Assembly (NCBI GenBank): GCA_020431405.1
Contig: JAGQIK010000117.1
Span: 1 to 30,590 of the forward strand
Direction of reading: 5' to 3'
Length of the DNA: 30,590 nt
Origin: Myxococcales bacterium
Lineage (GTDB): Bacteria; Myxococcota_A; Polyangia; GCA-2747355
Shown: piece after piece, positions 348 to 30,590 of the stretch
Layout: the number at the start of each line of letters is the position of its first letter
Numbering within the stretch: the stretch's first letter is position 1
The notes under the pieces: model-generated
The model's input: the letters and a program-made list of their open reading frames with translations, nothing else
What the model was told of the DNA's origin: nothing
Database searches by the model: none
Translations under genes and position numbers: made by a program

Positions 348-683
348 TCAGCTCGACGGATGGGCCGCCGCGGCTTGTTCGATGTAGCGCGACAGCACCT
401 CGCGCGCCGGTTGGTCGAGCTCGACGAAGCGCACACCCATGTCTTCGAGCGCCTCGTTGAGCCACACCACCTCGCCGCGCGCCTCGACGCGCGCGTCGCC
501 GAGCTCGGGGAAGTTGACGACCAGATCGACCTCGGTGCCCGGCCGCTGAAAGAAGGCCGTGTGGATGCACAGCCCGCCGAGGCTGATGTTCTGCACCTTG
601 TGGGTGCGCTTTTCGCCTTTGGAGGTGTACTCCACGTAGGCCGTCAGCTCGTATCTCGGAAAGGCCCGCTTGTCGCTTCCCAT
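348..683 (-). CDS. PilZ-domain protein, a putative c-di-GMP receptor.
   Basis: The 111-aa ORF carries the PilZ hallmarks RxxxR (FPRYELTAY) and D/NxSxGG (QNISLGGLCIH). A CAGGAGAC Shine-Dalgarno sits 7 nt upstream of the ATG at 681-683. Confidence 0.75.
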   Translation of the reverse strand: MGSDKRAFPRYELTAYVEYTSKGEKRTHKVQNISLGGLCIHTAFFQRPGTEVDLVVNFPELGDARVEARGEVVWLNEALEDMGVRFVELDQPAREVLSRYIEQAAAAHPSS

Positions 684-714
684 CTATGCGGTCTCCTGCG
701 CGCTCATCGTATCA

Positions 715-1221
715 CTACCCCTTGGCATCGACGGCCTCCTTGCGCTCGAGGATCGTCGGATGGTCGGGCTCGAGATCGAGCGCGAACTTGTAGTTGAGCT
801 GCGCCGTCTTGATGTCGCCGCGTCGCTCGGCGGCGAGCGCGAGGGTGAAGAACTTCTTGGCCTGCGGGTTCTGGATCGCCTGCTCGACGCGCTTGGGGCC
901 CTCGCGCTTGCGGTCCTTGTTGACCAGCCGGCGCTCGCCGCGCGAAAGCGCCTCGAGGTACTCGGCGCGCTGCTCGTGATCCATCAGCACGCGGTAGCCC
1001 TCGCAGACGCGCTTGTAGACGTCGTAGAACATGCGCCGCAGCTCGGGATCGGGGTTGGTCGCGTAGCGGTCGGGGTGCATCGAGAGCGCCATGCGGTGAA
1101 AGGCGCCGCGGATCTCGTCGGGCGACGACTGCGGCGCCACCTTGAGCAGCTCGAAGTACGTGTACTGATCGAGGTCGCGGTGGATCTGCGCGATGCGCGC
1201 CTTGAGCTGAGACTGGTCCAT
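715..1221 (-). CDS. Small J-domain co-chaperone, DnaJ/HscB-like, with no zinc-finger or C-terminal domains.
   Basis: The 168-aa ORF has a J-domain with the HPD motif (ALSMHPDRYATNPD) preceded by the YTYFELLKV helix I pattern. It lies immediately downstream of the Hsp70 gene on the same strand. Confidence 0.8.
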   Translation of the reverse strand: MDQSQLKARIAQIHRDLDQYTYFELLKVAPQSSPDEIRGAFHRMALSMHPDRYATNPDPELRRMFYDVYKRVCEGYRVLMDHEQRAEYLEALSRGERRLVNKDRKREGPKRVEQAIQNPQAKKFFTLALAAERRGDIKTAQLNYKFALDLEPDHPTILERKEAVDAKG

Positions 1222-1233
1222 CGAGTGCTAGCT

Positions 1234-1263
1234 GTCTGCCTGTCTGCCTGGTCTGCCTGTCTA
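1234..1263. repeat. Tandem octamer repeat (GTCTGCCT) x3, plus one inserted G and a partial copy, in the Hsp70-J intergenic spacer.
   Basis: The sequence gctGTCTGCCTGTCTGCCTgGTCTGCCTGTCTa can be read directly. It abuts the Hsp70 stop codon (cta at 1261-1263 on the plus strand). Confidence 0.8.
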
Positions 1264-2892
1264 TCCCGTGTGCACGCCGGTGACCTCCTCGTCCGGGACG
1301 TGGTCTACCGGCGCAGGCATCTGGTCCTGGCGCGCGGCCATCTGGCTGATGGCTTCCTCGCTCGAGGTGCCGATGACCTGCACGCGCGCGTTCTGCGCGC
1401 GCCCCGTCTCGAGGTCGACGGCGCTGACCTGCAGGATGCCGTTGGTGTCGATCTCGAAGCGCACCTCGATCTGCACCTCGCCGCGCGCGGCCGGGCGCAG
1501 GCCTTCGAGCAGCAGCTCGCCGAGCGCCTGGTTCTCGGCGAACGTGCGCGACTCGCCCTGGCAGACCTGGATGCGCACCACCTGCTGGTTGTCCTGGCTG
1601 GTGGTGAAGACGCGGCTCTGCTCGACGGGGATCTGCTGGTTGCGATCGATGATCGTGTCGGCGTAGCCGCCGACGACGGCCATGCCGAGCGCGCGCGGCG
1701 TGACGTCGAGCAGCACCGAGCCGGGCGCCGAGGCCGAGACGCCGCTTCGCGCGAGCGCGGCGGCCTGGATCGCGGCGCCGACGGCGACGACCTCGTCGGG
1801 GTTGATGTCGGTGCGCGCTTCGATGCCGAAGTAGCCCTTCACGCCCTCGCGCACCATCGGCATCTTGGTCGAGCCGCCGACGAGCACCACGTCGTCGATC
1901 TGCGTGGCGGTGACGTTGCCGAGCTTCATCGCCTCGTCGCAGATCAGAAACGAACGCTGTACGAGATCGCGCGCCATCGCGTTGAGCGCCTCGACGGTCA
2001 ACGTGAACCCGAGGTCGAGCGACTGTCCGCCTTCGCCGTAGGCGATCTCTTGCACCTGCACGACGGCCTTGGGGCGCGAGCTGAGCTGACACTTGATCTG
2101 CTCGGCCACCGAGCGCAGGCGCGCCATGCCGCCGATGTTGTAGCGCAGGTCGACGCGCGTCTGGCGCAGGAAGATGTCGACCATGTAGTCGGTGATGCGC
2201 TCGTCGATGTCGTCGCCGCCGAGGAACGTGTCGCCGGCGGTGGAGAGCACCTCGAAGACGCGGTCGTTGAGCTGCAGGCAGGTGATGTCGAACGTGCCGC
2301 CGCCGAAGTCGTAGATCACGACGCGGCTGGTGATGCCGCGGCCGTAGCCGTAGGCGAGCGCGGCGGCGGTGGGCTCGTTGAGGATGCGCAGCACGTTGAG
2401 GCCGGCGATGCGGCCAGCGGCGCGTGTCGCCTCGCGCTGGCCGTCGTCGAAGTTGGCCGGCACGGTGATGACGGCGCTCTCGATCTTCTGACCGGTGTAG
2501 TCCTCGGCGAGCGCGCGCACGTGGCGCAGGATGAAGGCCGAGATCTCGGGGATGGTGTACTCGTTGCCGCGCGCGACGATGACGGGCTGTTGGTTTTCGC
2601 CCTCGACGACGTCGTAGGGCAGCCGCTTGGTCGACTCTTGCACCGGCTCGGCGCGGAAGCTGCGGCCGATGAGGCGCTTGGCCGAGTAGACGGTGTTCTT
2701 GGGGTCGATGATGCGGCGGCGCTTGGCTTCCTGGCCCACCAGCACCGTGCCGTTAGGGTGAAACGAGACCACCGACGGGTGAATGCGGCGTCCGTCGCGA
2801 TCGGGAATTACGGTCGCTTTGTTATCGGCGACCACGGCGATGACCGTGTTGGACGTGCCGAGGTCGATCCCGACGACGGGCTGCTCGGACAT
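1261..2892 (-). CDS. Hsp70-family chaperone, a DnaK paralogue of 543 aa that lacks the C-terminal lid region.
   Basis: The N-terminus VGIDLGTSNTVIAV and the motifs DFGGGTFD and VLVGGSTKMP are canonical Hsp70 ATPase-domain signatures. The protein ends shortly after the beta-sandwich substrate-binding region. Confidence 0.9.
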   Translation of the reverse strand: MSEQPVVGIDLGTSNTVIAVVADNKATVIPDRDGRRIHPSVVSFHPNGTVLVGQEAKRRRIIDPKNTVYSAKRLIGRSFRAEPVQESTKRLPYDVVEGENQQPVIVARGNEYTIPEISAFILRHVRALAEDYTGQKIESAVITVPANFDDGQREATRAAGRIAGLNVLRILNEPTAAALAYGYGRGITSRVVIYDFGGGTFDITCLQLNDRVFEVLSTAGDTFLGGDDIDERITDYMVDIFLRQTRVDLRYNIGGMARLRSVAEQIKCQLSSRPKAVVQVQEIAYGEGGQSLDLGFTLTVEALNAMARDLVQRSFLICDEAMKLGNVTATQIDDVVLVGGSTKMPMVREGVKGYFGIEARTDINPDEVVAVGAAIQAAALARSGVSASAPGSVLLDVTPRALGMAVVGGYADTIIDRNQQIPVEQSRVFTTSQDNQQVVRIQVCQGESRTFAENQALGELLLEGLRPAARGEVQIEVRFEIDTNGILQVSAVDLETGRAQNARVQVIGTSSEEAISQMAARQDQMPAPVDHVPDEEVTGVHTG

Positions 2893-3132
2893 GGCCCCTC
2901 CTGCGCTCAGCGGCTGCGGGTGATTCTAAACGATATTCAGCGCAGCGAGGGGATTGACACAGTTTGGATCGCGGCCTGACGCAGCTGTCATGTAGGCCGC
3001 CCGCGTTTCGAGGGCGCGCGCCGCTAAGCGCGCAGAACCGCGATGCTCTGTCTCGCGGCACGGCAGTTGCTCCATCGATCGGCGTGGCTGGCGCCGTGCG
3101 CGGGTCACACGCGTGTGCTGGGAGGTACCATC

Positions 3133-15380: not shown

Positions 15381-16225
15381 TAGCGATCGTCGAGCGCGCG
15401 CATCAGGCGGTGCCGGTCGCGGCGGCTGGCGAACGGCGGCTCGCCGTCGCCCGCGCCGGCGGGTTGAAGCCCGCCATCGTCGGCCGCGTACCACTTGGGA
15501 AAGAACGACAGCTTCGTCGCGCGCTCGATCTCTTCGATGTCGTCGACCAAGTAGTCGTCGGGTGACTTGTTCTTCGGCGCGTCTTGCGGGATGCGGAAGG
15601 CGAAGACGTCGACGTTGCTCATGCGGTTCCACGGATAGCGGAACGGATCGGCCATCACGTAGAAGTACGCCTCGGGCAGCGGCACCTGGCTGCCGTTGGG
15701 GCGCTCGATGATCTCGGGGTCGTCGCCGAAGATCGGTCCAGCGATGGCCCAGACGTGGTCCTTGTCGGGGGTGTCCTCGATCTTGCGGATGGCGTCTTCG
15801 AGCTTGGCCCACACGCCGGTGTTGAGCGTGCCGCGCTGTGGGCTCATGTTCGACATCAGGAACGTCTCCATCTGCGCCAGGCGGCCGAACTGTTCATTGA
15901 TCGCCTGGTTGGGGACCATGTGACCGACGTGGTAGCCATCGCCGAAGGTCTCCGACCCGACGCGCAGTGCTTCATCGAGGCGCGCATCGTCGTAGTAGAG
16001 GTGCGGACGATCGTAGTCCACGGCGGCCTTGGCGTGCGCTACGCGGTAGGCCGCCCACGTCGGCTGCATGCGCTTGGGGCAGAACCCGACGGCGAAGCCA
16101 TGGTTGACGAGCACCACGACCGGGTTGTCCTTGTCGCCGTTGAGTGGTCGGCCTTGAAAGCAGTAGAGGTCGAGCAAGTAGGCCAGATGTTGGCTGCTCG
16201 GATGGACTGTCGTGAAGTCGGTCAT
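15380..16225 (-). CDS. DNA/RNA non-specific endonuclease of the Serratia NucA / EndoG family (a beta-beta-alpha-metal-finger nuclease), with no signal peptide.
   Basis: The catalytic His motif GYHVGHMVPN corresponds to DRGH. The metal-ligand Asn motif FLMSNMSPQ matches the EndoG motif TFYLSNVAPQ. The N-terminus is not hydrophobic. Its start overlaps the upstream gene's stop (ATGA at 16222-16225). Confidence 0.8.
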   Translation of the reverse strand: MTDFTTVHPSSQHLAYLLDLYCFQGRPLNGDKDNPVVVLVNHGFAVGFCPKRMQPTWAAYRVAHAKAAVDYDRPHLYYDDARLDEALRVGSETFGDGYHVGHMVPNQAINEQFGRLAQMETFLMSNMSPQRGTLNTGVWAKLEDAIRKIEDTPDKDHVWAIAGPIFGDDPEIIERPNGSQVPLPEAYFYVMADPFRYPWNRMSNVDVFAFRIPQDAPKNKSPDDYLVDDIEEIERATKLSFFPKWYAADDGGLQPAGAGDGEPPFASRRDRHRLMRALDDR

Positions 16226-17079
16226 GCTGCACCGCCGTTGCTCGCATCGTCGTGATCGTCATCGTCTCCGTCTTCGTCGCGCAGCGCGGCGAAAGGCGAG
16301 CCGGCGGCGAAGTAGCTCACGCGTTTGGTGCTCGGCAGCCCTTGCTTGTCGCCGCTGCCCGCGACGGCGAGCTCGCCGGCGTCGAGCTGGCGCAGCGCCT
16401 TGTAGTGGCCGTCTTCGTAGCGCAGCTGCACCGCTTGAAACGCGAAGACCAGCCGCGGATCGCCGCTGAACGTGAGCGCCGACTCGCCCGCCGAGCTCGC
16501 CTTGACGCCGACCTTGGCGCCCACCAGCTGCTTGATCTCGTCGACCTTGACGCCGACGTCGACGTTGCCTTCGTCCTTGGCGCTGACCTTGAGGTTGTTG
16601 CTCTTGAGCACGGTGGCGAGCACGTACAGCTCGTCCGCATCGAGCAGGCGCTTGGTGTTCTGCGCGTGCGGGTTGACCTCTGCCGTGGCGAGGAACTTGT
16701 CGAGGGCGATGATGCTGATCTGGTCCATACGCACGTCGTGAAATTCGAACGTCAGCGCCACCGCCTTGCTGTACTTGGCCTCGATGCCAGCGGTGCCGCC
16801 GCCGAGCGCCGCCAGCACGCCCTTGAGCAGCGACAGGCCGAGCGACAGCTCGAGCGAGCGCGTCTGCTTGCCGGCAAGCTGCGGCGTGGCGATGTCTGCT
16901 TCGACCTCGGGTATCGGCTCGGCGCCCGTGTTGAAGAGCTCGCCTAGCGCGCCGAGGCGGCGCAAGCTGCTGCCGCTTCGCTCGGCGAGCGTCAGCACCG
17001 GCAAGCGCTCGCGAGGCAGGCGCACCGCGGAGAAGCCCGAGTCGGCGAGCATGGTCAGCACGGGATCTTTGTTGCCCAT
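16222..17079 (-). CDS. Gasdermin-like pore-forming protein of 285 aa, putatively a bacterial gasdermin, with an acidic C-terminal tail.
   Basis: The protein is beta-rich and amphipathic. LYVLATVLKSNNLKVSAKDEG...ESALTFSGDPRLVFAFQAVQLRYED parallels the GSDMD N-terminal domain YVVTEVLQTQKEVEVT...IPSGSTLAFRVAQLVIDSD. The length fits bacterial gasdermins. The C-terminus DEDGDDDDHDDASNGGAA could be an inhibitory peptide. It is preceded by three caspase-like protease genes. Confidence 0.6.
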   Translation of the reverse strand: MGNKDPVLTMLADSGFSAVRLPRERLPVLTLAERSGSSLRRLGALGELFNTGAEPIPEVEADIATPQLAGKQTRSLELSLGLSLLKGVLAALGGGTAGIEAKYSKAVALTFEFHDVRMDQISIIALDKFLATAEVNPHAQNTKRLLDADELYVLATVLKSNNLKVSAKDEGNVDVGVKVDEIKQLVGAKVGVKASSAGESALTFSGDPRLVFAFQAVQLRYEDGHYKALRQLDAGELAVAGSGDKQGLPSTKRVSYFAAGSPFAALRDEDGDDDDHDDASNGGAA

Positions 17080-17113
17080 CTGTCTGTCTCCTCGTGCGCC
17101 GAAGCGGCGGCGG

Positions 17114-18490
17114 CTAGATCAACGTGGCGGCGGGATCGCCGTGAAGAACGAAGCTGGTGCGGTCGAAGGCGGTAAGCTTGGCGGTGGTCGCCTCGCGCGC
17201 GATCTTCTTGCGGTCGACGCCGGCGTCGCCCGACCAGCGGGTCAGCGCGTCGCGGCTCTGGCTGAGCAGCGCGCCCACGCCGACAGTGAACCCAGAAAGC
17301 GCACGCCCGATGGTGCTGCCGCTGTACAGCCCGTTGACCAGCGCGACGCGTACGTGATCAGCGAGCAGCTGCTGGTTGTCGATCAACGTCCAGTTGAAAG
17401 TTGGCTCGACGTGCCCGATGAACGCGCGCGCGGGGTGCGGCCCGCCGAGCAGCGCGCGCGCCAGCGGGCTCGAGCGCGCGCCGAGCGCGCCTACCGCGTC
17501 GAGCATCTCGCGAATGGGGCCATCGCTGAGCAGCGGCGCAAACACCGAGCCATCGTCGCTGCCGCCCGAGCAGCAGGCGTGGACGTACCAGATGGCCCCG
17601 CTGGCGGCGACGGCGGCGGCGACGGCCTGCGGATCGACGGCGGCGCCTCGCGTGTCCACCGGCGCACCGAGGCGCGCGCGCGCCTGCGCGCTGTCGAGCT
17701 TGCTCGTCAGACCGTGGCTGCTGCAGACCACGAGCGCTGGCTTTTCGCGCGACAGCACGTCGAGCAGCGCGTCGACGTTGGCGTCTTTGCCTTCGAGAAG
17801 GCGCGCGCCAGCGCGCGTGTCGGCGTCGGCGGCGAGCGCGCGGTGCACCGGCATCGCCACCGCGGGCTTCATCAGGTGCGTGATGTCGTCGGGGTCGTTG
17901 TCGTGGGTGACCGCGAAGACCAGCGACTGCGCGCGCTGTGCGGGCGCGGGCGGCTGCGCTGCGAGCAGCGCGTCGACGTAGCGGCCGAGGGCGTCGTCGT
18001 CGTCGTCGTCGTCGAGATCGAGGCGACCGACGTAGAGCCCCGAGAGGCCGGCCTGATATTGCAGCGCCCAGGGCAGCGCCTGCGGGCTGCCGAACAACAG
18101 CAGGTACGTCGGGATGCGTCCTGCGCCGGCGCCGCGCGGCGTGCCGACCAGCGGGCGCGCCTGGCCGTCGACCCACAGCCTTCGCGGGTCGCCGCGGTAG
18201 CGCAGCACCTTGGCGCCCGGCCGCGCCGCGAACAGCCGCTGCAACGCCGCAGGTGCGCCATCGAGCCGCGCGCGCGCGCTGTCGTCGAGCGCGTCGTCGT
18301 CGGGCAGCACGACGCCCCAGCCGACGTCGGGATGTGCAGGCGAGTTGGGATCGGGCGCGCCAGGCCAGGCCATCAGCGATTGCTCGCGTGCGGCGACACG
18401 CGCGTTGGCGAAGGCCAGCGCGTTGGGCGTCTCGTCGAGCAGCGCGCCCTCGCCGGCGACGTAGGCGTCGATGCGCAGCGCTTCGCTCAA
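17114..18490 (-). CDS. Caspase-like protease (peptidase C14 / CHAT-type His-Cys dyad) of 458 aa.
   Basis: The His motif PALVVCSSHGL aligns with caspase FVCVLLSHG. The Cys motif IWYVHACCSGG aligns with QACRG. There is a poly-Asp run (DLDDDDDDDA). Its start overlaps the upstream stop (ATGA at 18487-18490). Confidence 0.7.
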   Translation of the reverse strand: MSEALRIDAYVAGEGALLDETPNALAFANARVAAREQSLMAWPGAPDPNSPAHPDVGWGVVLPDDDALDDSARARLDGAPAALQRLFAARPGAKVLRYRGDPRRLWVDGQARPLVGTPRGAGAGRIPTYLLLFGSPQALPWALQYQAGLSGLYVGRLDLDDDDDDDALGRYVDALLAAQPPAPAQRAQSLVFAVTHDNDPDDITHLMKPAVAMPVHRALAADADTRAGARLLEGKDANVDALLDVLSREKPALVVCSSHGLTSKLDSAQARARLGAPVDTRGAAVDPQAVAAAVAASGAIWYVHACCSGGSDDGSVFAPLLSDGPIREMLDAVGALGARSSPLARALLGGPHPARAFIGHVEPTFNWTLIDNQQLLADHVRVALVNGLYSGSTIGRALSGFTVGVGALLSQSRDALTRWSGDAGVDRKKIAREATTAKLTAFDRTSFVLHGDPAATLI

Positions 18491-19797
18491 AGCTGACCTC
18501 GCAGCGTGGCGAGCGTGGCCTCCGCCGCAGCGCGCTTGTCGGGCGGCAACGCGGGCAGCGACGCCTCGAGCACCTGGATAGCGACGAGCAGATCGCCGCT
18601 GGCGCCAACGGCTTGCAGGCTATCGCGGCGCTCGAACAGCACGGGCGCGACCCAGCGCTTGTCGATGGGCGCGTGCTGCGGGCGCGGGTCGGGCACCAAG
18701 CGCTGTCGCGGCGAGAGCATCAGCTGCGGCCAGCTGAGCGTCTTGACGTCTTCTGGCTTCTGCAGCGCTTCGAGCAGTCCTGCGTAGAAGGCCCGCGAGA
18801 ACGTGCTCAGGTCGCCGAAGTCCATGATGTCGCTCATGCCGATCGCGGCGTGAAAGCGCTTCTGCACCAGCGTGCGTCCCATCGAGCGGCTGGTATCGCC
18901 CGGGCGCGCGCCGCGACAGCAGCCGAGCACCGCGACGAGCGGGTCGAACGCGGGCTTGGCGCGGGCCACGGCGTCGATGATGTCGTCGGGGTAGATGTAG
19001 ATCGAGCCGGGGGCGTTGAGCTCGGCGTCGATCACGTCGGAGACGATCAGATAGGGCGAGCGCGTGGCCTCACCGTGGCAGAAGACGTGAAGCACGTGCG
19101 GGCGAGACGCAGCGAGCGCCTCGAGGAGCGCGGGTCCGCCGCCGCGCTTGATCTCCTCGACGCGCAGGCGCGGCGTGCCGTTGGCCGCGGGCGCGCTGGC
19201 GGCGGGATGCGCGGCGGCCTCCTGCAGCACCTCCTTGTCGGCGGCCAGTAGGTGCAGCGTCGCTTCGCGCCCGTCAGCGAGCACCGTGTCGCGCAGCGCG
19301 CGCCACTCGGGTGTCGCTTTCCAACCTTGCGCGCCGAGCACGGCGAATACGCGCAAGCCCTCGCTGATGTCCACGGCGAAGCGCTCGTCGTCTCCGCGCC
19401 GCGCTACGTCGCGAACGACGCGGCTTACCGGCCAGCCGTCGAGCGAGATGAAGCGCGGTGGGTCGCCGGCGTTGGCACTGGCGCAGAGGCACTCCCAGGG
19501 CAGCGAGTCGACGTCGTTGCCGGCGAGGTCGAGCACCACCGAGCCGCCGTCGACCAGCAGCTTGACCACGCCGTTGTGCACGCCCGGGTTGTCCTTGACG
19601 AGCCCGTCGAACAGGCGCTTGCCCAGCGCCTCGGTGTTGGCGTCGTCGAAGGCGGCGCCGAGGAAGGCCTGCACCTCGGCATCGCTGCTGTCGAGCTCGA
19701 GCGTCGATTCGTGACCCCAGCCGGGGATGTTCTCGGGCCGGTCGAGCTCGACCTTGGTGCCGTCAGGCCGTTCGCGGATGCGCAGCACGAGCTTCAT
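18487..19797 (-). CDS. CHAT / caspase-like protease of 436 aa, starting at MKLVLRIRE.
   Basis: GGAGG lies 6 nt upstream of the ATG at 19795-19797. The His motif HVLHVFCHGEA aligns with CHAT HFAGHG. The Cys motif LVAVLGCCRGA aligns with LVVLSAC. The longer ORF in the track (to 19968) has an Arg/Pro-rich leader that looks like an artefact. Confidence 0.7.
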   Translation of the reverse strand: MKLVLRIRERPDGTKVELDRPENIPGWGHESTLELDSSDAEVQAFLGAAFDDANTEALGKRLFDGLVKDNPGVHNGVVKLLVDGGSVVLDLAGNDVDSLPWECLCASANAGDPPRFISLDGWPVSRVVRDVARRGDDERFAVDISEGLRVFAVLGAQGWKATPEWRALRDTVLADGREATLHLLAADKEVLQEAAAHPAASAPAANGTPRLRVEEIKRGGGPALLEALAASRPHVLHVFCHGEATRSPYLIVSDVIDAELNAPGSIYIYPDDIIDAVARAKPAFDPLVAVLGCCRGARPGDTSRSMGRTLVQKRFHAAIGMSDIMDFGDLSTFSRAFYAGLLEALQKPEDVKTLSWPQLMLSPRQRLVPDPRPQHAPIDKRWVAPVLFERRDSLQAVGASGDLLVAIQVLEASLPALPPDKRAAAEATLATLRGQL

Positions 19798-21104
19798 GCG
19801 TCGCCTCCGTCGCGCCTGCGCAGCGCGTCGACGTCGATCTCGGGCGGCGCGTCGCTGCTCTCGAGGAGCTTGGTGAGGTACTCGAGGGCAGCGCGTTGGC
19901 CGCGGCTGGTGCCGGCCGCGCTGTCGAGGCGCGCGGCGGTCTGGCGCACGAAGGCTTCGGCGCGCCACAGCTCGGGTTGCGCGTCGACGGTGCTCTCGAC
20001 GCGCGCCAACATCGCGTCGAGCTCGCTGCCGCTGCGCGCGTTTTCGAGCGCCTCGGGCGACGAGTAGACGCGCACACCGGGCGCGCCGTGAAGATCCTGC
20101 AGGCTGAACGGCTGGTGCTGCTCGAAGGGCAGCAGCGCGGCGAACAGCGCGTCGCCGACGTCACCGCCGACCTGCTCGCGCGCGTCGAGCACCGCGACCG
20201 TGCCGGCGCGCGAGCGGGCGATCGTGTCAGCCAGGCGCAAGAGCCCGCTGCGCGAGTAGCAGTCGTGCGCCATCACGACGGCCAGCGCGCTGCAGCCCAT
20301 GTAGTCGAGAGCCGCGATGAGCTGTTGGGATCCGACGTAGCGGCTCGCGCCGACGCGCTCGAGGTGCGGCGACTCGGCGACGGCGAGCACGCCGCTGCCC
20401 TGTGTGTACACGCCGTGGCCGACCACGGCGAAGAGATCTACCGGCCCATCGATACTAGTCACCATCCAGCGCAGCCACGGATCCCGGATGCGCCGCGTTG
20501 GCGACGCCGCCGCGCTGTCCGTTAGATCAGCCGGCGGGTGATGCACGCTGACGTTGGGCGGCACCATCTGCTCGACCTGATCGACGAGCGGCGCGTCGGT
20601 GAACACGTGTGTCTGCACGCCGGCGCCGAAGAGCGCGTCGGCGCCGCGCGCCAGCTGCGCACAGGTGTCGGGCACGCTGTAGCGCATCTCGTCGTCGGGC
20701 AGGCTGGCCCAGATCGCGGCGCAGGGCTGACGCCGCCGCGGCGCGTGCGCCACGTCGAGCCCGAGGCGCACCACGGTGCGCGCGAGCTGCGGCGCGAGCC
20801 AGCGCTCCCACGGCAGCAGCGGCAAACGGCTGCTCGCCGGCGCCACCCACAGCCAGACGCCAGGCTCGTTGGCGAAACGATGCGCGTGCGCGGCGACGCT
20901 CTGTAGCCCGGCGGGAAGCGCGTCCGGCGGATCGATCACTTCGGTGGCGGCGAAGCGGATCTCCGAGGGCAGCCCGATTTCGCTGACAGGGCAGCTGCCG
21001 GCGATCTCTCTCGCGTCGCCTTCGACCAGCGCGAGCTCGACGGTGTCGTCAGGCCCGAATCCAACCTCGAGCCGCGGCCCGCTCATCTGTGGCGGCGCTC
21101 TCAT
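19794..21104 (-). CDS. Third caspase/CHAT-like paralogue of about 436 aa, possibly degenerate or regulatory.
   Basis: GGGGAG lies 5 nt upstream of the ATG at 21102-21104. The His-Gly motif LFAVVGHGVYT and the downstream Cys motif LAVVMAHDCYS echo the dyad. Its stop overlaps the next gene's start (ATGA at 19794-19797). Confidence 0.55.
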   Translation of the reverse strand: MRAPPQMSGPRLEVGFGPDDTVELALVEGDAREIAGSCPVSEIGLPSEIRFAATEVIDPPDALPAGLQSVAAHAHRFANEPGVWLWVAPASSRLPLLPWERWLAPQLARTVVRLGLDVAHAPRRRQPCAAIWASLPDDEMRYSVPDTCAQLARGADALFGAGVQTHVFTDAPLVDQVEQMVPPNVSVHHPPADLTDSAAASPTRRIRDPWLRWMVTSIDGPVDLFAVVGHGVYTQGSGVLAVAESPHLERVGASRYVGSQQLIAALDYMGCSALAVVMAHDCYSRSGLLRLADTIARSRAGTVAVLDAREQVGGDVGDALFAALLPFEQHQPFSLQDLHGAPGVRVYSSPEALENARSGSELDAMLARVESTVDAQPELWRAEAFVRQTAARLDSAAGTSRGQRAALEYLTKLLESSDAPPEIDVDALRRRDGGDA

Positions 21105-21257
21105 CTGTGCTCCCCGCGCGCGACCGCGCGCTCCACCCGCTCCGTCCCGTACGCCCATGCGAACACAGATACGCATGATTTGCGGCTTGCGGAGGTTGTT
21201 ATGTACCAGAAAAAGGCGCGGCTGTGTTGCGCGACACGTAGCGCGGCGCGCGTGCGG

Positions 21258-23138: not shown

Positions 23139-27113
<3,975 letters not shown>

Positions 27114-27393
27114 GGGCTCTTCGGGCGGCGCGAAGCGTGTTCGGCCGGCGGCCGTATCTTACCAACGACCTGCGACTTTTCGCGACAACCTTCTCTGGTC
27201 GCGCGGTGGTCGTCCGCGAACGTCCCGTGTGACTTCGTGATGGTGCCACGGCCTGGGGGCTAGCGCTCCGATCTGGGAGGGCACGCCCCAGATCGCGTCG
27301 GCCCGCTGGCCGGTTATCTCGTCCAACTCGCGGGGAATATGAAGTTCCTTCTGATTGGAAACCCGTGGCATGTGGGTTGCTCTTCCGTGGGAC

Positions 27394-28749
27394 ATGCGTC
27401 TCCCGAGCATCGTCCTCGCCGCACTCCTCGCCGTGCCGGCGTCTGGCTGCGTCGAGACCGACGGCGAGCCCATCGAGAAGAACGAAGGCGCGCAGCAGTC
27501 GTGCCCCGGCGGCGTACCGCGTCGCGACCCGGTCAAGCCCGAGGTCATCCAGGCCTTCTATCCGTGCTGCAGCGGGCGCGCGCACCTGATCCCCGAGTTC
27601 CTCGTGCCGTCCGACTTCCGCGACATGCTCGACAAGGGCCCCGACGGCACGTCGACGCTGTGCGTGCCCGACGAGTTCGCGGTCAACCCCGACTTCACGC
27701 CCAAGACCTGCCGCTCGCTGTTCGGCCAGCCGGGCGCGTGCATCTCCGAGTGCGTGCCGCAGGTGCGCGACGCGCCGACGGCGCTGCCGCAGGCCGACTG
27801 CGCCCCCGGCGAGAAGTGCGCGCCTTGCGTCGACCCGCGCACCAACCAAGAGACCGGCGCCTGCAAGATGGGTCAGATGGCGTGCGCGCCGCCAGCGAGC
27901 AACACGCCCGGCACCGACGACTGCCGCGAGTGGGACCCCGAGCCGAGCCTCGCCGATCAGTACCCGGTCTGCTGTCCCGGCGCGCGCTGCGTGCCCAAGG
28001 ACCTGGTCGAGGATTCGCTCGCCAAGGACCTCGCGCCGTGTGAAGGCGGCTACTGCACGCCCGAGAAGTTCCTCGTGCGCGGCGGCAAGTTCAAGCCCGC
28101 CACCTGCCGCGCCATCGGCAACGTCGAGGGGCGCTGCCTGTCGACCTGCATCAAGTCGATCAAGGAGCAGGCCGATCAGCTCGAGCAGGGCAGCTGCGAC
28201 CAAGGCGAGGTCTGCGCGCCGTGCTACGACCCGCGCACCGGCATGGGCACCGGCGCCTGCACCGCTGGGCTGTGCGACGCGCCGAAAGAGCCGGCCAAGA
28301 CCTTCACCCAGTGCGGCAAAGAGAAGGACCAGGCCTGGTGCGTGCCCGAGTCGCTGGTGCCGGCCAAGGACCGCTGCAACTTCGACACGCAGGGCTGTCA
28401 GGCGGCGCCGGTGTGCGAGCCGGGCACGATCTGCGTGCCCAAGGCGATCGTCGACGCGGGCCCGACGTTCAAGCCGCGCCAGTGCACCAACGGGCTGCTC
28501 GGCTTCCTGGCGCTCTTCCAGAAGCTGTCGGGCGGCATCATCCAGGCCATCGCGGCGATGAAGGACTTCAAAGAGGGGCGCTGCCTCTCGGCCTGCCTGC
28601 CGCAGGTGCGCAAGGACGCCGCGCTGCTCGGCCAGAACGGCTGCGCCGACGGCGAGATCTGCGTGCCGTGCTTCGATCCGCGGCAAGCGGCCAACGGCAA
28701 GATCCCGACCGGGGCGTGCGACGAGAATCGCCGCTGCCCGGGGACCTAG
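27394..28749 (+). CDS. Cys-rich secreted lipoprotein built from three repeated modules of about 55 aa. The start could alternatively be 27355 or 27370.
   Basis: MRLPSIVLAALLAVPASGC is a signal peptide with a lipobox. Three modules follow of the form C(R/S)..G..G.C.S.C......L.Q..C..GE.C.PC.DPRT....GAC. Confidence 0.65.
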   Translation: MRLPSIVLAALLAVPASGCVETDGEPIEKNEGAQQSCPGGVPRRDPVKPEVIQAFYPCCSGRAHLIPEFLVPSDFRDMLDKGPDGTSTLCVPDEFAVNPDFTPKTCRSLFGQPGACISECVPQVRDAPTALPQADCAPGEKCAPCVDPRTNQETGACKMGQMACAPPASNTPGTDDCREWDPEPSLADQYPVCCPGARCVPKDLVEDSLAKDLAPCEGGYCTPEKFLVRGGKFKPATCRAIGNVEGRCLSTCIKSIKEQADQLEQGSCDQGEVCAPCYDPRTGMGTGACTAGLCDAPKEPAKTFTQCGKEKDQAWCVPESLVPAKDRCNFDTQGCQAAPVCEPGTICVPKAIVDAGPTFKPRQCTNGLLGFLALFQKLSGGIIQAIAAMKDFKEGRCLSACLPQVRKDAALLGQNGCADGEICVPCFDPRQAANGKIPTGACDENRRCPGT

Positions 28750-28761
28750 GGACGGCCGACG

Positions 28762-30590
28762 TTGATCACCCGCTTCAGCGCGGCGCTCGCGCCGCTCGTG
28801 CTGCTCGCGCTCGCGCCGTCGTCGGCGCGCGCTGGCGGCATGGAGGTCGGTGACACCGGCGCCGAGGCGCTCGGACGCGGCGGCGCGTTCACGGCCAAAG
28901 CCGACAACCCGACGGCGGTCAACTACAACCCCGCCGGCTTCGCCAAGCTGCGCGGCCACCACGCGGCCATCAGCGCCAACATCATCTACTCCGACTACAC
29001 GTTCCAGCGCCTCGGCGGCTTCGACGGGCAGACGCCCTATCCGACCATCGCCAGCGAGACGCCGCTGTTCGCCGCGCCGATGCACCTGATGGCGAGCACC
29101 GACTTCGGCTACTTCAAGCGCGTGACGTTCGGCTTCGGCATCTACATGCCCGCCGCCGCGACGCGCTCGTATCCGCGCGAGCTCAACGTCGGCGGCGCCA
29201 ACGTGCCGTCGCCGGCGCGCTTCGACTTCCTCTCGATGCAGGGCATCATGCTCTTTCCCACGGCGGCGCTGGCGATCCGCCTCACCGACTGGCTCGACGT
29301 CGGCGTGACGTTTCAGACCGTCATCACCAAGGCGACGATCAAGATGCTCGCCACGGTGGCGGCCGCCTGCGAGACCCCCGAGGACGCGTCGTGCGACGTC
29401 GACATCGACCTCGAGGTCAAAGACATGTTCTCGCCCACCGGCTCGCTCGGCTTTCTGATGCGCCTCGGCGAGAGCGTCGAGGTCGGCGGCATGCTGCGGC
29501 TGCCGTCGTCGTCGGAGCTCAAGGGCACCGCCAACGTCGGTTTCGGCCCTGGCATCTCGCGCCTCGAAAACAGCCTGCAGCACAAGATGCTCGATCCGAT
29601 GGCGCCGCAGGTCACGCTGACCAACGACTACCCGTGGATGATGCGGCTCGGCGGTCGCATCATCTTTCGCGACAAGCGCGGCGAGGAAGCCGGCGACATC
29701 GAGCTCGACCTGATCTACGAGCGCTGGTCGGCGGTCAGCAAGCGCACCGTGCTGATCGAGGGGCAGTCGCTGGGCAAGCCGATGCCGCCGTCGGAGGTCG
29801 ACTACGCGCTCAAGGACACCTTCAGCGTGCGCCTCGGCGGCGCCTATCGCTTCAGGCTCGCCAGCGACATGTTCCTCACGCTGCGCGCCGGCGTGTTCGG
29901 CGAGACGGCGACGACGTCGATCTCCGATACGCGCCTCGGCGTGCTGTCGCCGGCGCGCGTCGCGTTCACCGGCGGCGTCGGCCTCAAGTGGGGCTTCATC
30001 AGCGTCGACGTGGCGTTCGCGCAGTTCTTCTTCCCCAAGCGCGTGGTCGGGCGCAGCACGGTCACGGCGCAGGACTTCGGCGGCGGCGTCGGGCCGACGG
30101 TGGGCAACGGCGTCTACGCCGCCAAGCTGACGGCGCTGGCGCTGCAGGTCAGCTTCGCCTTCGGCCAGCCGAAGCAGGCGCTGCCGCGCCGCACGCCGCC
30201 CAAGCCCGACGACTACGACGGCATGGGCCTCTACCTCTCGAAGAACGAGCGCAAGCGCAAGCGCCGGCGCCGTCGCACGCGCCAGGCGCTCGCCTCGGCC
30301 GACGGGCTCGTGTTCTCGGGCACGCGCAGCTACGCCACGAAGACAGCCGCCGCGCACGAGAGCCGCACCGAGCGCCTGCAGCGCGCGCGGCGTCAGGGGC
30401 GCACGTCGTCGAGGCGCGCGCCGTCACGACGCGGCGTGCGCGATGTCGACTTCAACTTCTCGGCCGAGAAGGTCACGCGGCGCGACAGCAGCTCGCGCAG
30501 CGGCGGTGACAGCTACAGCTTCGAGCCCACCACCGTGCGGCGCTCGAGCCGCTCGCGTCGGGTGCGCCGCCGCGTGCGCCGCTACCGCCG
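28762..30590 (+). CDS. FadL/TodX (OmpP1) family outer-membrane transport protein, partial. It carries a long basic C-terminal extension that runs off the window.
   Basis: A TTG start lies 12 nt after the upstream stop. The signal peptide is ITRFSAALAPLVLLALAPSSARA. ALGRGGAFTAKADNPTAVNYNPAG matches the FadL N-terminus [24 protein letters not shown]. The barrel-terminal strand LALQVSFAF is followed by an Arg/Ser-rich tail. The frame is open to the window end and is absent from the ORF track because it has no stop. Confidence 0.7.
   Translation, partial: MITRFSAALAPLVLLALAPSSARAGGMEVGDTGAEALGRGGAFTAKADNPTAVNYNPAGFAKLRGHHAAISANIIYSDYTFQRLGGFDGQTPYPTIASETPLFAAPMHLMASTDFGYFKRVTFGFGIYMPAAATRSYPRELNVGGANVPSPARFDFLSMQGIMLFPTAALAIRLTDWLDVGVTFQTVITKATIKMLATVAAACETPEDASCDVDIDLEVKDMFSPTGSLGFLMRLGESVEVGGMLRLPSSSELKGTANVGFGPGISRLENSLQHKMLDPMAPQVTLTNDYPWMMRLGGRIIFRDKRGEEAGDIELDLIYERWSAVSKRTVLIEGQSLGKPMPPSEVDYALKDTFSVRLGGAYRFRLASDMFLTLRAGVFGETATTSISDTRLGVLSPARVAFTGGVGLKWGFISVDVAFAQFFFPKRVVGRSTVTAQDFGGGVGPTVGNGVYAAKLTALALQVSFAFGQPKQALPRRTPPKPDDYDGMGLYLSKNERKRKRRRRRTRQALASADGLVFSGTRSYATKTAAAHESRTERLQRARRQGRTSSRRAPSRRGVRDVDFNFSAEKVTRRDSSSRSGGDSYSFEPTTVRRSSRSRRVRRRVRRYR

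Follow-up and report, generated by a model that had tools for sequence, protein, structure and literature searches.

Bacterial gasdermins (bGSDMs) are switched on by a CHAT or C14 protease encoded next to them, and published work has found their C-terminally truncated forms to be toxic; 43 of the 50 bGSDMs in a published survey adjoin one or more proteases. In the type I system of Runella zeae, the gasdermin adjoins one large CHAT-type clan-CD protease with a fused Roc-COR sensor, and removal of approximately 20 C-terminal residues is the activation model. In the Lysobacter-type CARD systems, a conserved sensor and protease module, composed of trypsin-like proteases with CARD-like domains and an NLR-like ATPase, is combined with swappable effectors (gasdermin, endonuclease, phospholipase), the gasdermin being exchanged for nuclease or phospholipase effectors (Wein et al.). 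A caspase-activated nuclease ('canu') and an alpha/beta-hydrolase zymogen activated by a caspase-like protease have also been published (PMC12642450; Tuck et al., 2025). Here, we describe a gasdermin gene (locus tag KC503_08790, annotated until now as 'hypothetical protein') and the operon in which it lies, on a complete 30,590-bp contig with 70% GC from a Myxococcales metagenome-assembled genome (MAG). This whole contig is referred to below as the window.

The product of this gene (16222..17079, minus strand) is a bacterial gasdermin. It is encoded behind a cassette of three clan-CD protease paralogues, designated P4, P3 and P2 in that order, and ahead of a nuclease. We consider it probable (about 0.72) that this gasdermin is kept latent by its own C-terminal peptide, that the protease module of the operon activates it, and that the hydrolase effector usually found with this module was exchanged here for the gasdermin and the nuclease. 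On its own, the gasdermin is a divergent but otherwise ordinary representative of a family that was described in 2022; the new part is the system context of this protein, which lacks the N-terminal cysteine. The locus is a new system variant, consisting of an undescribed triple clan-CD cassette in which the usual hydrolase is absent and a gasdermin and a nuclease are present instead.

The first-pass annotation had proposed a gasdermin at this position and had suggested a structural comparison with known family members. Both the sequence models and the fold bore this out. The PADLOC bGSDM model PDLC02986 matched residues 4–248 (3.5e-69), and the NCBIfam equivalog NF051890 (prok_gasdermin) matched with 186.5 bits (cutoff 100). 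Sequence searches of the PDB retrieved the bGSDM of Vitiosangium sp. (7N51, 2.1e-37; pore form 8SL0, 4.6e-37), and a profile of 106 gasdermin sequences retrieved 7N51 with 1.9e-88 and the Runella and Bradyrhizobium proteins with approximately 1e-24 to 1e-30. A Pfam search gave no match, though the precomputed entry of the database lists PF26164. The AlphaFold model (predicted local distance difference test, pLDDT, 87) showed the twisted central beta-sheet of the gasdermin N-terminal domain; its top structural matches were all gasdermins, with approximately 32% identity and a template modeling (TM) score of 0.74–0.79 to the Vitiosangium protein in Foldseek. The segments on which the original proposal was built were found at residues 151–171 (LYVLATVLKSNNLKVSAKDEG) and 205–223 (SGDPRLVFAFQAVQLRYED), and the tail RDEDGDDDDHDDASNGGAA at residues 267–285. 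Their pairing with strands of human GSDMD was reproduced by hhalign with the profile of 106 relatives, in which DELYVLATVLKSNN-LKV aligned with DNVYVVTEVLQTQKEVEV and LVFAFQAVQLRYED with ILAFRVAQLVIDSD; the E-value against GSDMD-NT (1.3e-3) is that of a single comparison with a GSDMD sequence entered by hand.

The open reading frame (ORF) of 285 residues starts at the first ATG past an in-frame stop codon, which makes extension upstream impossible. Its GC content was 0.89 at third codon positions (GC3) and 0.43 at second positions (GC2), indicating that it is truly coding. An exhaustive HMMER search found 935 gasdermin cluster representatives at E ≤ 1e-3, and since the closest of these was 48% identical, the protein is divergent within what is a large family; a word-indexed protein search returned just four relatives of the gasdermin and two of P4. 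The conserved family positions and the PFxxL motif were retained. Among the relatives, gasdermin N-domains were also found fused to subtilase S8, caspase C14 (with DUF4384), PG_binding_1 with a GH19 chitinase/lysozyme-like domain, or GDSL lipase (P0129, P0155, P0140, P0143, P0201, P0158 and P0164); the nearest relative (P0129, 48% identity) is an S8 fusion.

The features of the operon, in the order in which they are transcribed, are:

19794..21176, minus strand: P4, a pseudo-CHAT protein (CHAT paralogue without the conserved catalytic Cys) and first gene of the cassette, assigned by profile–profile comparison and orthology; NCBI places its start at 21104, giving 436 residues.
18487..19797, minus strand: P3, a clan-CD cysteine protease of the CHAT type; its correct start codon is the ATG at 19797, corresponding to M58 in the long ORF.
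17114..18490, minus strand: P2, a clan-CD cysteine protease resembling gingipain and separase, from a large family that has no annotation, with a TTG start, directly 5′ of the gasdermin.
17088..17092, minus strand: Shine-Dalgarno sequence AGGAG (GAGGAGA), read from the sequence, 8 nt 5′ of the gasdermin ATG and inside the 34-nt spacer between P2 and the gasdermin.
16384..17079, minus strand: pore-forming core of the gasdermin, residues 1–232, with N3 (17071..17073) in the column usually occupied by the palmitoylated Cys.
16282..16383, minus strand: linker and predicted C-terminal autoinhibitory peptide, residues 233–266, ending in PFAAL (P262–L266; 16282..16296).
16225..16281, minus strand: acidic C-terminal extension RDEDGDDDDHDDASNGGAA, residues 267–285, past the normal end of the family.
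15380..16225, minus strand: DNA/RNA non-specific endonuclease of the beta-beta-alpha-Me type, NucA/EndoG/EXOG family (PF01223).

Start and stop codons overlap at three of the four junctions: P4/P3 (ATGA in gcATGAagc; ATG of P3, stop of P4), P3/P2 (TTGA; TTG start of P2, stop of P3) and gasdermin/nuclease (ATGA; ATG of the nuclease, stop of the gasdermin). The fourth, P2/gasdermin, is the 34-nt spacer with the Shine-Dalgarno sequence. GC3 was 0.879–0.895 across the five genes vs. 0.92–0.95 in the flanking genes. Given these overlaps, the short spacer and the shared GC3, P4-P3-P2-gasdermin-nuclease is one translationally coupled five-gene operon with the gasdermin in fourth position. A scan of the operon for promoters and terminators gave nothing informative, and a search for tRNA genes found none.

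The neighboring proteases invoked by the first-pass annotation are present, and were revealed only by structure prediction and orthologue analysis: searches of P2, P3 and P4 against Pfam, PADLOC and NCBIfam gave only noise, and no PDB sequence was matched by P3 or by P2, the latter searched both as a single sequence and as a profile. As is typical of bGSDM genes, the gasdermin gene adjoins protease genes, with P2 34 nt upstream and P3 next upstream. P2 has the caspase-hemoglobinase fold of clan CD with its His...Cys dyad in canonical order, and at the sequence level it falls outside gingipain C25 proper (neither a Pfam Peptidase_C25 nor a PDB sequence match). The assignment of P3 follows its orthologues (BLASTP 1.6e-76 to that of locus L005 and approximately 1e-22 to those of L001, L003 and L004), all four of which match PF12770 (CHAT) at 37–56 bits (cutoff 24); H298-G299 and C351 (ORF numbering) were 100% conserved among 80 orthologues including the window protein. 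P4 has its orthologues in the genes that precede CHAT in L001, L003, L004 and L005, and hhalign aligned its family with that of P3 over 233 columns (probability 97%, E 5e-11), with P4 H254 on the P3 His. An active P4 protease was considered and rejected: the column of the catalytic Cys was not conserved across 78 P4 orthologues, and C306 of the window protein is three residues off the aligned catalytic column. Because the catalytic Cys is not conserved, P4 probably serves as a regulatory or sensor subunit without catalytic activity.

To place the cassette, one genome per species was surveyed across 185,579 species, in which 211 places encode a relative of P2; the best 80 of these 211 loci were examined. 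Homologues of P2 in a Thermoanaerobaculia MAG, in Blastococcus, in an Acidobacteriota MAG and on two other contigs all lie behind CHAT and P4-like genes, and upstream of those P4-like genes there is usually a protein of approximately 440 residues; orthology among these loci was confirmed. ABH, P4, P3 and P2 were all present in 68 of the 80 loci, and in 66 of these 68 they follow that order on one strand. ABH is an alpha/beta serine hydrolase that matches DUF900 at or above cutoff; its SHGWNN, GHSyG (Ser), Asp and His motifs are conserved, whereas an insert in its center varies. Hosts were mostly soil Actinomycetota, Acidobacteriota, Chloroflexota, Alpha- and Betaproteobacteria and Gemmatimonadota, with the cassette beside metabolic genes. 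Three loci showed other layouts: P2 alone behind an adh_short gene (L006:8001-9431), ABH followed directly by P2 without P4 or P3 (L079:3046-6078), and a P4-like gene followed by a 949-residue CHAT protein that is possibly a P3-P2 fusion (L088:4672-10534). Two of the cassette proteins have no Pfam name, and the literature searched (CHAT with DUF900, gingipain, operon) holds no description of the cassette.

Loci without ABH were mostly truncated contigs; the informative ones were two alphaproteobacterial loci, L035 and L067, where the position upstream of P4-P3-P2 is taken by other genes. In L035 (L035:844-3444 and L035:509-1639) it holds an Endonuclease_NS-like/lysozyme-like fusion together with a papain-like ORF (C1-type, QGSRGTC...GGHAM), and in L067 (L067:6040-7104) the papain-like ORF, with no hydrolase in either. 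A reverse survey covered 80 metagenomic gasdermin loci, most of them on short contigs. An ABH-family homologue lay beside the gasdermin in three of these: L091, L120 (where it is fused to subtilase S8) and L135 (C14, gasdermin, CHAT-TPR, ABH). Because ABH homologues adjoin gasdermins in other protease systems, ABH and gasdermin are members of one pool of effectors linked to proteases. The window is the only sampled case of a P4-P3-P2 cassette with a gasdermin, and here the usual hydrolase is absent; none of the 160 related loci in the sample had this combination of cassette, gasdermin and nuclease.

The nearest solved relative of the gasdermin, the Vitiosangium bGSDM (7N51, inactive; 8SL0/9A84, pores; Johnson et al., 2022/2024), is also myxobacterial; it shares the core fold and likewise carries a short inhibitory peptide at its C-terminus, with a hydrophobic cap motif at the end of the peptide. 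It differs in having a palmitoylated Cys4, where the window protein has Asn3, and the window protein is 19 residues longer through its acidic extension. The likeness to the Runella system lies in the CHAT-type clan-CD protease next to the gasdermin and in its activation model; in place of one large protease with a fused sensor, there are here three separate proteins of approximately 440–460 residues with no recognizable sensor, plus a nuclease. A CARD/trypsin-type system was considered and rejected, since no trypsin, CARD-like domain, NLR-like ATPase or PADLOC system match was found among the operon proteins; the resemblance is in the conserved module with swappable effectors. Protease-licensed hydrolase and canu modules, in which site-specific cleavage frees a latent hydrolase or nuclease, fit the logic of the cassette ABH and of the nuclease here. 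LcHydrolase, however, is approximately 33 kDa and works with one caspase, whereas the cassette ABH is approximately 47 kDa and comes with three clan-CD paralogues, and the text of the canu paper makes no mention of Endonuclease_NS, NucA or EndoG, the nuclease type found here. The type III-B CRISPR cascade from SAVED-CHAT to PCaspase (Steens et al., 2024) depends on CRISPR, SAVED and cyclic-oligoadenylate machinery, none of which is present.

In the core, the absence of an N-terminal Cys near position 3 had been recognized correctly from the start: N3 lies in a column where 67 of 106 relatives have Cys. Such a Cys (residue 3 or 4) is common among bGSDMs and not universal. Its palmitoylation was shown by Johnson et al., who list the Gillisia bGSDM as lacking it. 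In our set of 113 full-length gasdermin representatives, 72 had a Cys within residues 2–6 and 41 had none. With these 41 and the Gillisia protein, the missing Cys is not unusual.

As in other bGSDMs, the core is followed by only approximately 50 residues. The family ends in a motif (P/A)-F-x-x-(L/I/V), here P262-F263-A-A-L266; of 106 relatives, 95 had F or L in the F263 column and 88 had a hydrophobic residue (L, I, V or F) in the L266 column. What the peptide does is known from work on the Vitiosangium, Runella and Bradyrhizobium proteins, and L260 of the Vitiosangium peptide caps a hydrophobic tunnel (Johnson et al.). By analogy, the inhibitory element of the window protein would be the stretch up to PFAAL. 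The first-pass annotation had instead taken the acidic tail RDEDGDDDDHDDASNGGAA for the autoinhibitory peptide, which did not survive: the conserved PFxxL at 262–266 precedes the tail, which is additional length beyond the family end. Since 22 residues follow the motif Phe (joint longest of 106), vs. a family median of 6, the acidic run is a surplus appendage on a normal inhibitory peptide. A cleavage site would be expected further upstream, in the stretch of approximately 240–258 (GSGDKQGLPSTKRVSYF) that was modeled with low confidence (pLDDT 48–52 across residues 241–260).

The product of the last gene matched PF01223 with 8.8e-25 (88 bits, cutoff 23), and in the PDB it matched EXOG (7e-12), Serratia nuclease (1e-9) and NucA (1e-7). 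Its GH and SNMSPQ align with the GH and SNIVPQ of EXOG, so that the catalytic His and the metal-binding Asn are kept. A secreted enzyme was considered and rejected, as no signal peptide was visible in the sequence.

Taken together with the described systems, these data point to the following mechanism. The P4-P3-P2 module would be activated by some trigger, possibly as a cascade or a hetero-complex; a cascade among the three is conjecture. An active cassette protease most likely, judging by the Runella, Vitiosangium and Bradyrhizobium examples, cuts the gasdermin in its flexible linker (approximately 240–258), upstream of PFAAL. The freed N-terminal domain would then oligomerize into large membrane pores, leading to cell death in phage defense or in another form of programmed death. 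The co-translated cytoplasmic endonuclease could plausibly act as a second executioner on DNA, in parallel with the animal caspase that acts on gasdermin D and CAD. Across hosts, the cassette is a portable and widespread unit, and its usual alpha/beta serine hydrolase would have been swapped here for the gasdermin and the nuclease.

Several results weigh against this mechanism. The pairing of cassette and gasdermin rests on a single contig: a gasdermin was found in none of the 80 other cassette loci (best 80 of 211), and P2 or P4 in none of the 80 metagenomic gasdermin loci. PADLOC has no model for the cassette, and metabolic genes, not a defense island, surround the operon in the window and the cassette in L001, L003 and L004. 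No sensor domain is recognizable in the cassette (no NTPase, no repeats), and the window P3 itself had no Pfam CHAT match (E ≤ 1). The C-terminal 45 residues of the gasdermin were modeled with low confidence (pLDDT 48–64 over 240–285), and docking of the inhibitory peptide was not seen in the model. Finally, the nuclease carries a Val for the Arg of the DRGH motif, and its activity is therefore not assured.

A broader proposal builds on the same data: that P4-P3-P2 is an undescribed, widespread and sensor-less clan-CD proteolytic cascade that licenses interchangeable death effectors, that its usual hydrolase is a killing effector equivalent to the gasdermin, and that one protease signal fires both the pore and the nuclease. 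We put this forward tentatively, as somewhat less likely to be right than wrong. Its appeal is that the gasdermin context provides a functional handle on the four-gene cassette of ABH and three clan-CD paralogues. Should the cassette be able to drive a gasdermin, the hydrolase that normally accompanies it is very likely a death effector licensed by a protease as well, and the cassette would be a new cell-suicide or immune module; the gasdermin–nuclease pair would, if this is true, be a bacterial parallel to caspase-driven pyroptosis with DNA fragmentation. A Cys-less gasdermin with an acidic tail would also be a natural test case for latency without palmitoylation.

The purpose of the operon may lie outside phage defense. 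A programmed-death or lysis module could serve development, stress response, extracellular DNA or kin functions in bacteria with a social or multicellular way of life, for example myxobacteria and actinomycetes. The predominance of soil bacteria among the cassette hosts and the metabolic neighborhood of the cassette are consistent with this, as is the finding that no defense genes were recognized within the window and no PADLOC match was obtained for the cassette. On the other hand, cell death has been linked to characterized gasdermin operons and to protease-linked nucleases and hydrolases, as has phage defense where this was tested, so a function other than defense appears unlikely, while retaining some weight.

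The acidic tail may have a function of its own, either by mimicking DNA to inhibit or tether the co-translated nuclease, in which case one cleavage would free both pore and nuclease, or by acting as an electrostatic guard that keeps the full-length protein off the anionic membrane. Its length, its net acidity (third of 113), the overlap of the nuclease gene with the gasdermin stop codon, and a nuclease with neither signal peptide nor visible immunity gene all speak for such a role, and the C-terminus of the nuclease (EPPFASRR) loosely resembles the gasdermin SPFAALR. That resemblance covers just three to four residues, however, no relative has a conserved counterpart of the tail, and poly-Asp runs occur in three more proteins of the contig (the major vault protein-like protein described below, P2 and a TPR protein). 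Because such runs recur, the sober reading of the sequence is that the tail is a lineage-typical low-complexity expansion, and we regard a dedicated function as improbable. As a separate observation, the end of the nuclease (...GDGEPPFASRRDRHRLMRALDDR; 15380..15490) and the inhibitory peptide of the gasdermin (...GSPFAALRDED; 16282..16300) share P-F-A-x-x-R, which could mark a common site where the cassette proteases dock or cleave, or be a coincidence. In P2, a run of seven Asp at residues 160–166 (17990..18010) stands where the family consensus is LDLDxxGL, and is another lineage-specific insertion.

It is also conceivable that the gasdermin and nuclease are an independent two-gene insertion behind the cassette, with the activating protease, if any, encoded elsewhere and a different substrate for the cassette. 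This would account for the lack of a gasdermin in the other 80 cassette loci, for the usual hydrolase in the closest cassette relatives (L005 and L087), and for an overall GC that is lower in the gasdermin (0.674) and nuclease (0.649) than in P2–P4 (0.705–0.728). It would, however, leave the cassette of the window with no effector, as its normal hydrolase is missing, and it sits poorly with the tight coupling of the genes (the short spacer with its Shine-Dalgarno sequence, and the ATGA overlaps) and with the same GC3 in all five. The frequent adjacency of bGSDMs to proteases in the published survey and the protease systems that ABH-family hydrolases and gasdermins share elsewhere also argue against it, and this explanation is distinctly improbable. 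That the gasdermin is a decaying or inactive relic, as the absence of the Cys that is stabilizing in some bGSDMs and of any relative above 50% identity in the databases searched might suggest, is very unlikely in view of its intact and strongly codon-biased ORF, its full-length HMM match and confident fold model, the family positions and PFxxL it has kept, and the approximately 36–37% of relatives that are Cys-less as well. An exchange of the hydrolase for a gasdermin activated by the cassette thus remains our preferred interpretation.

Elsewhere in the window, 9458..12124 (plus strand) encodes an 888-residue bacterial homologue of the eukaryotic major vault protein, with MVP_shoulder (7e-23) and Vault_3 and Vault_4 repeats and a long poly-Asp insert, DDDDDDGDADDDDDDEDE. 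An ORF at 670..2979 (plus strand) matched PF10712 ('NAD-specific glutamate dehydrogenase') with 7.5e-99; it runs antisense to an Hsp70/DnaK gene (1261..2892, minus strand, 3e-167) and is most likely a shadow ORF opposite dnaK and no real gene. The ORF of 1,088 residues at 27091..30357 (minus strand) has a GC content of 0.93 at first codon positions and 0.63 at third positions, a pattern characteristic of a wrong frame where genomic GC is high, indicating that the real gene lies in another frame or on the opposite strand.

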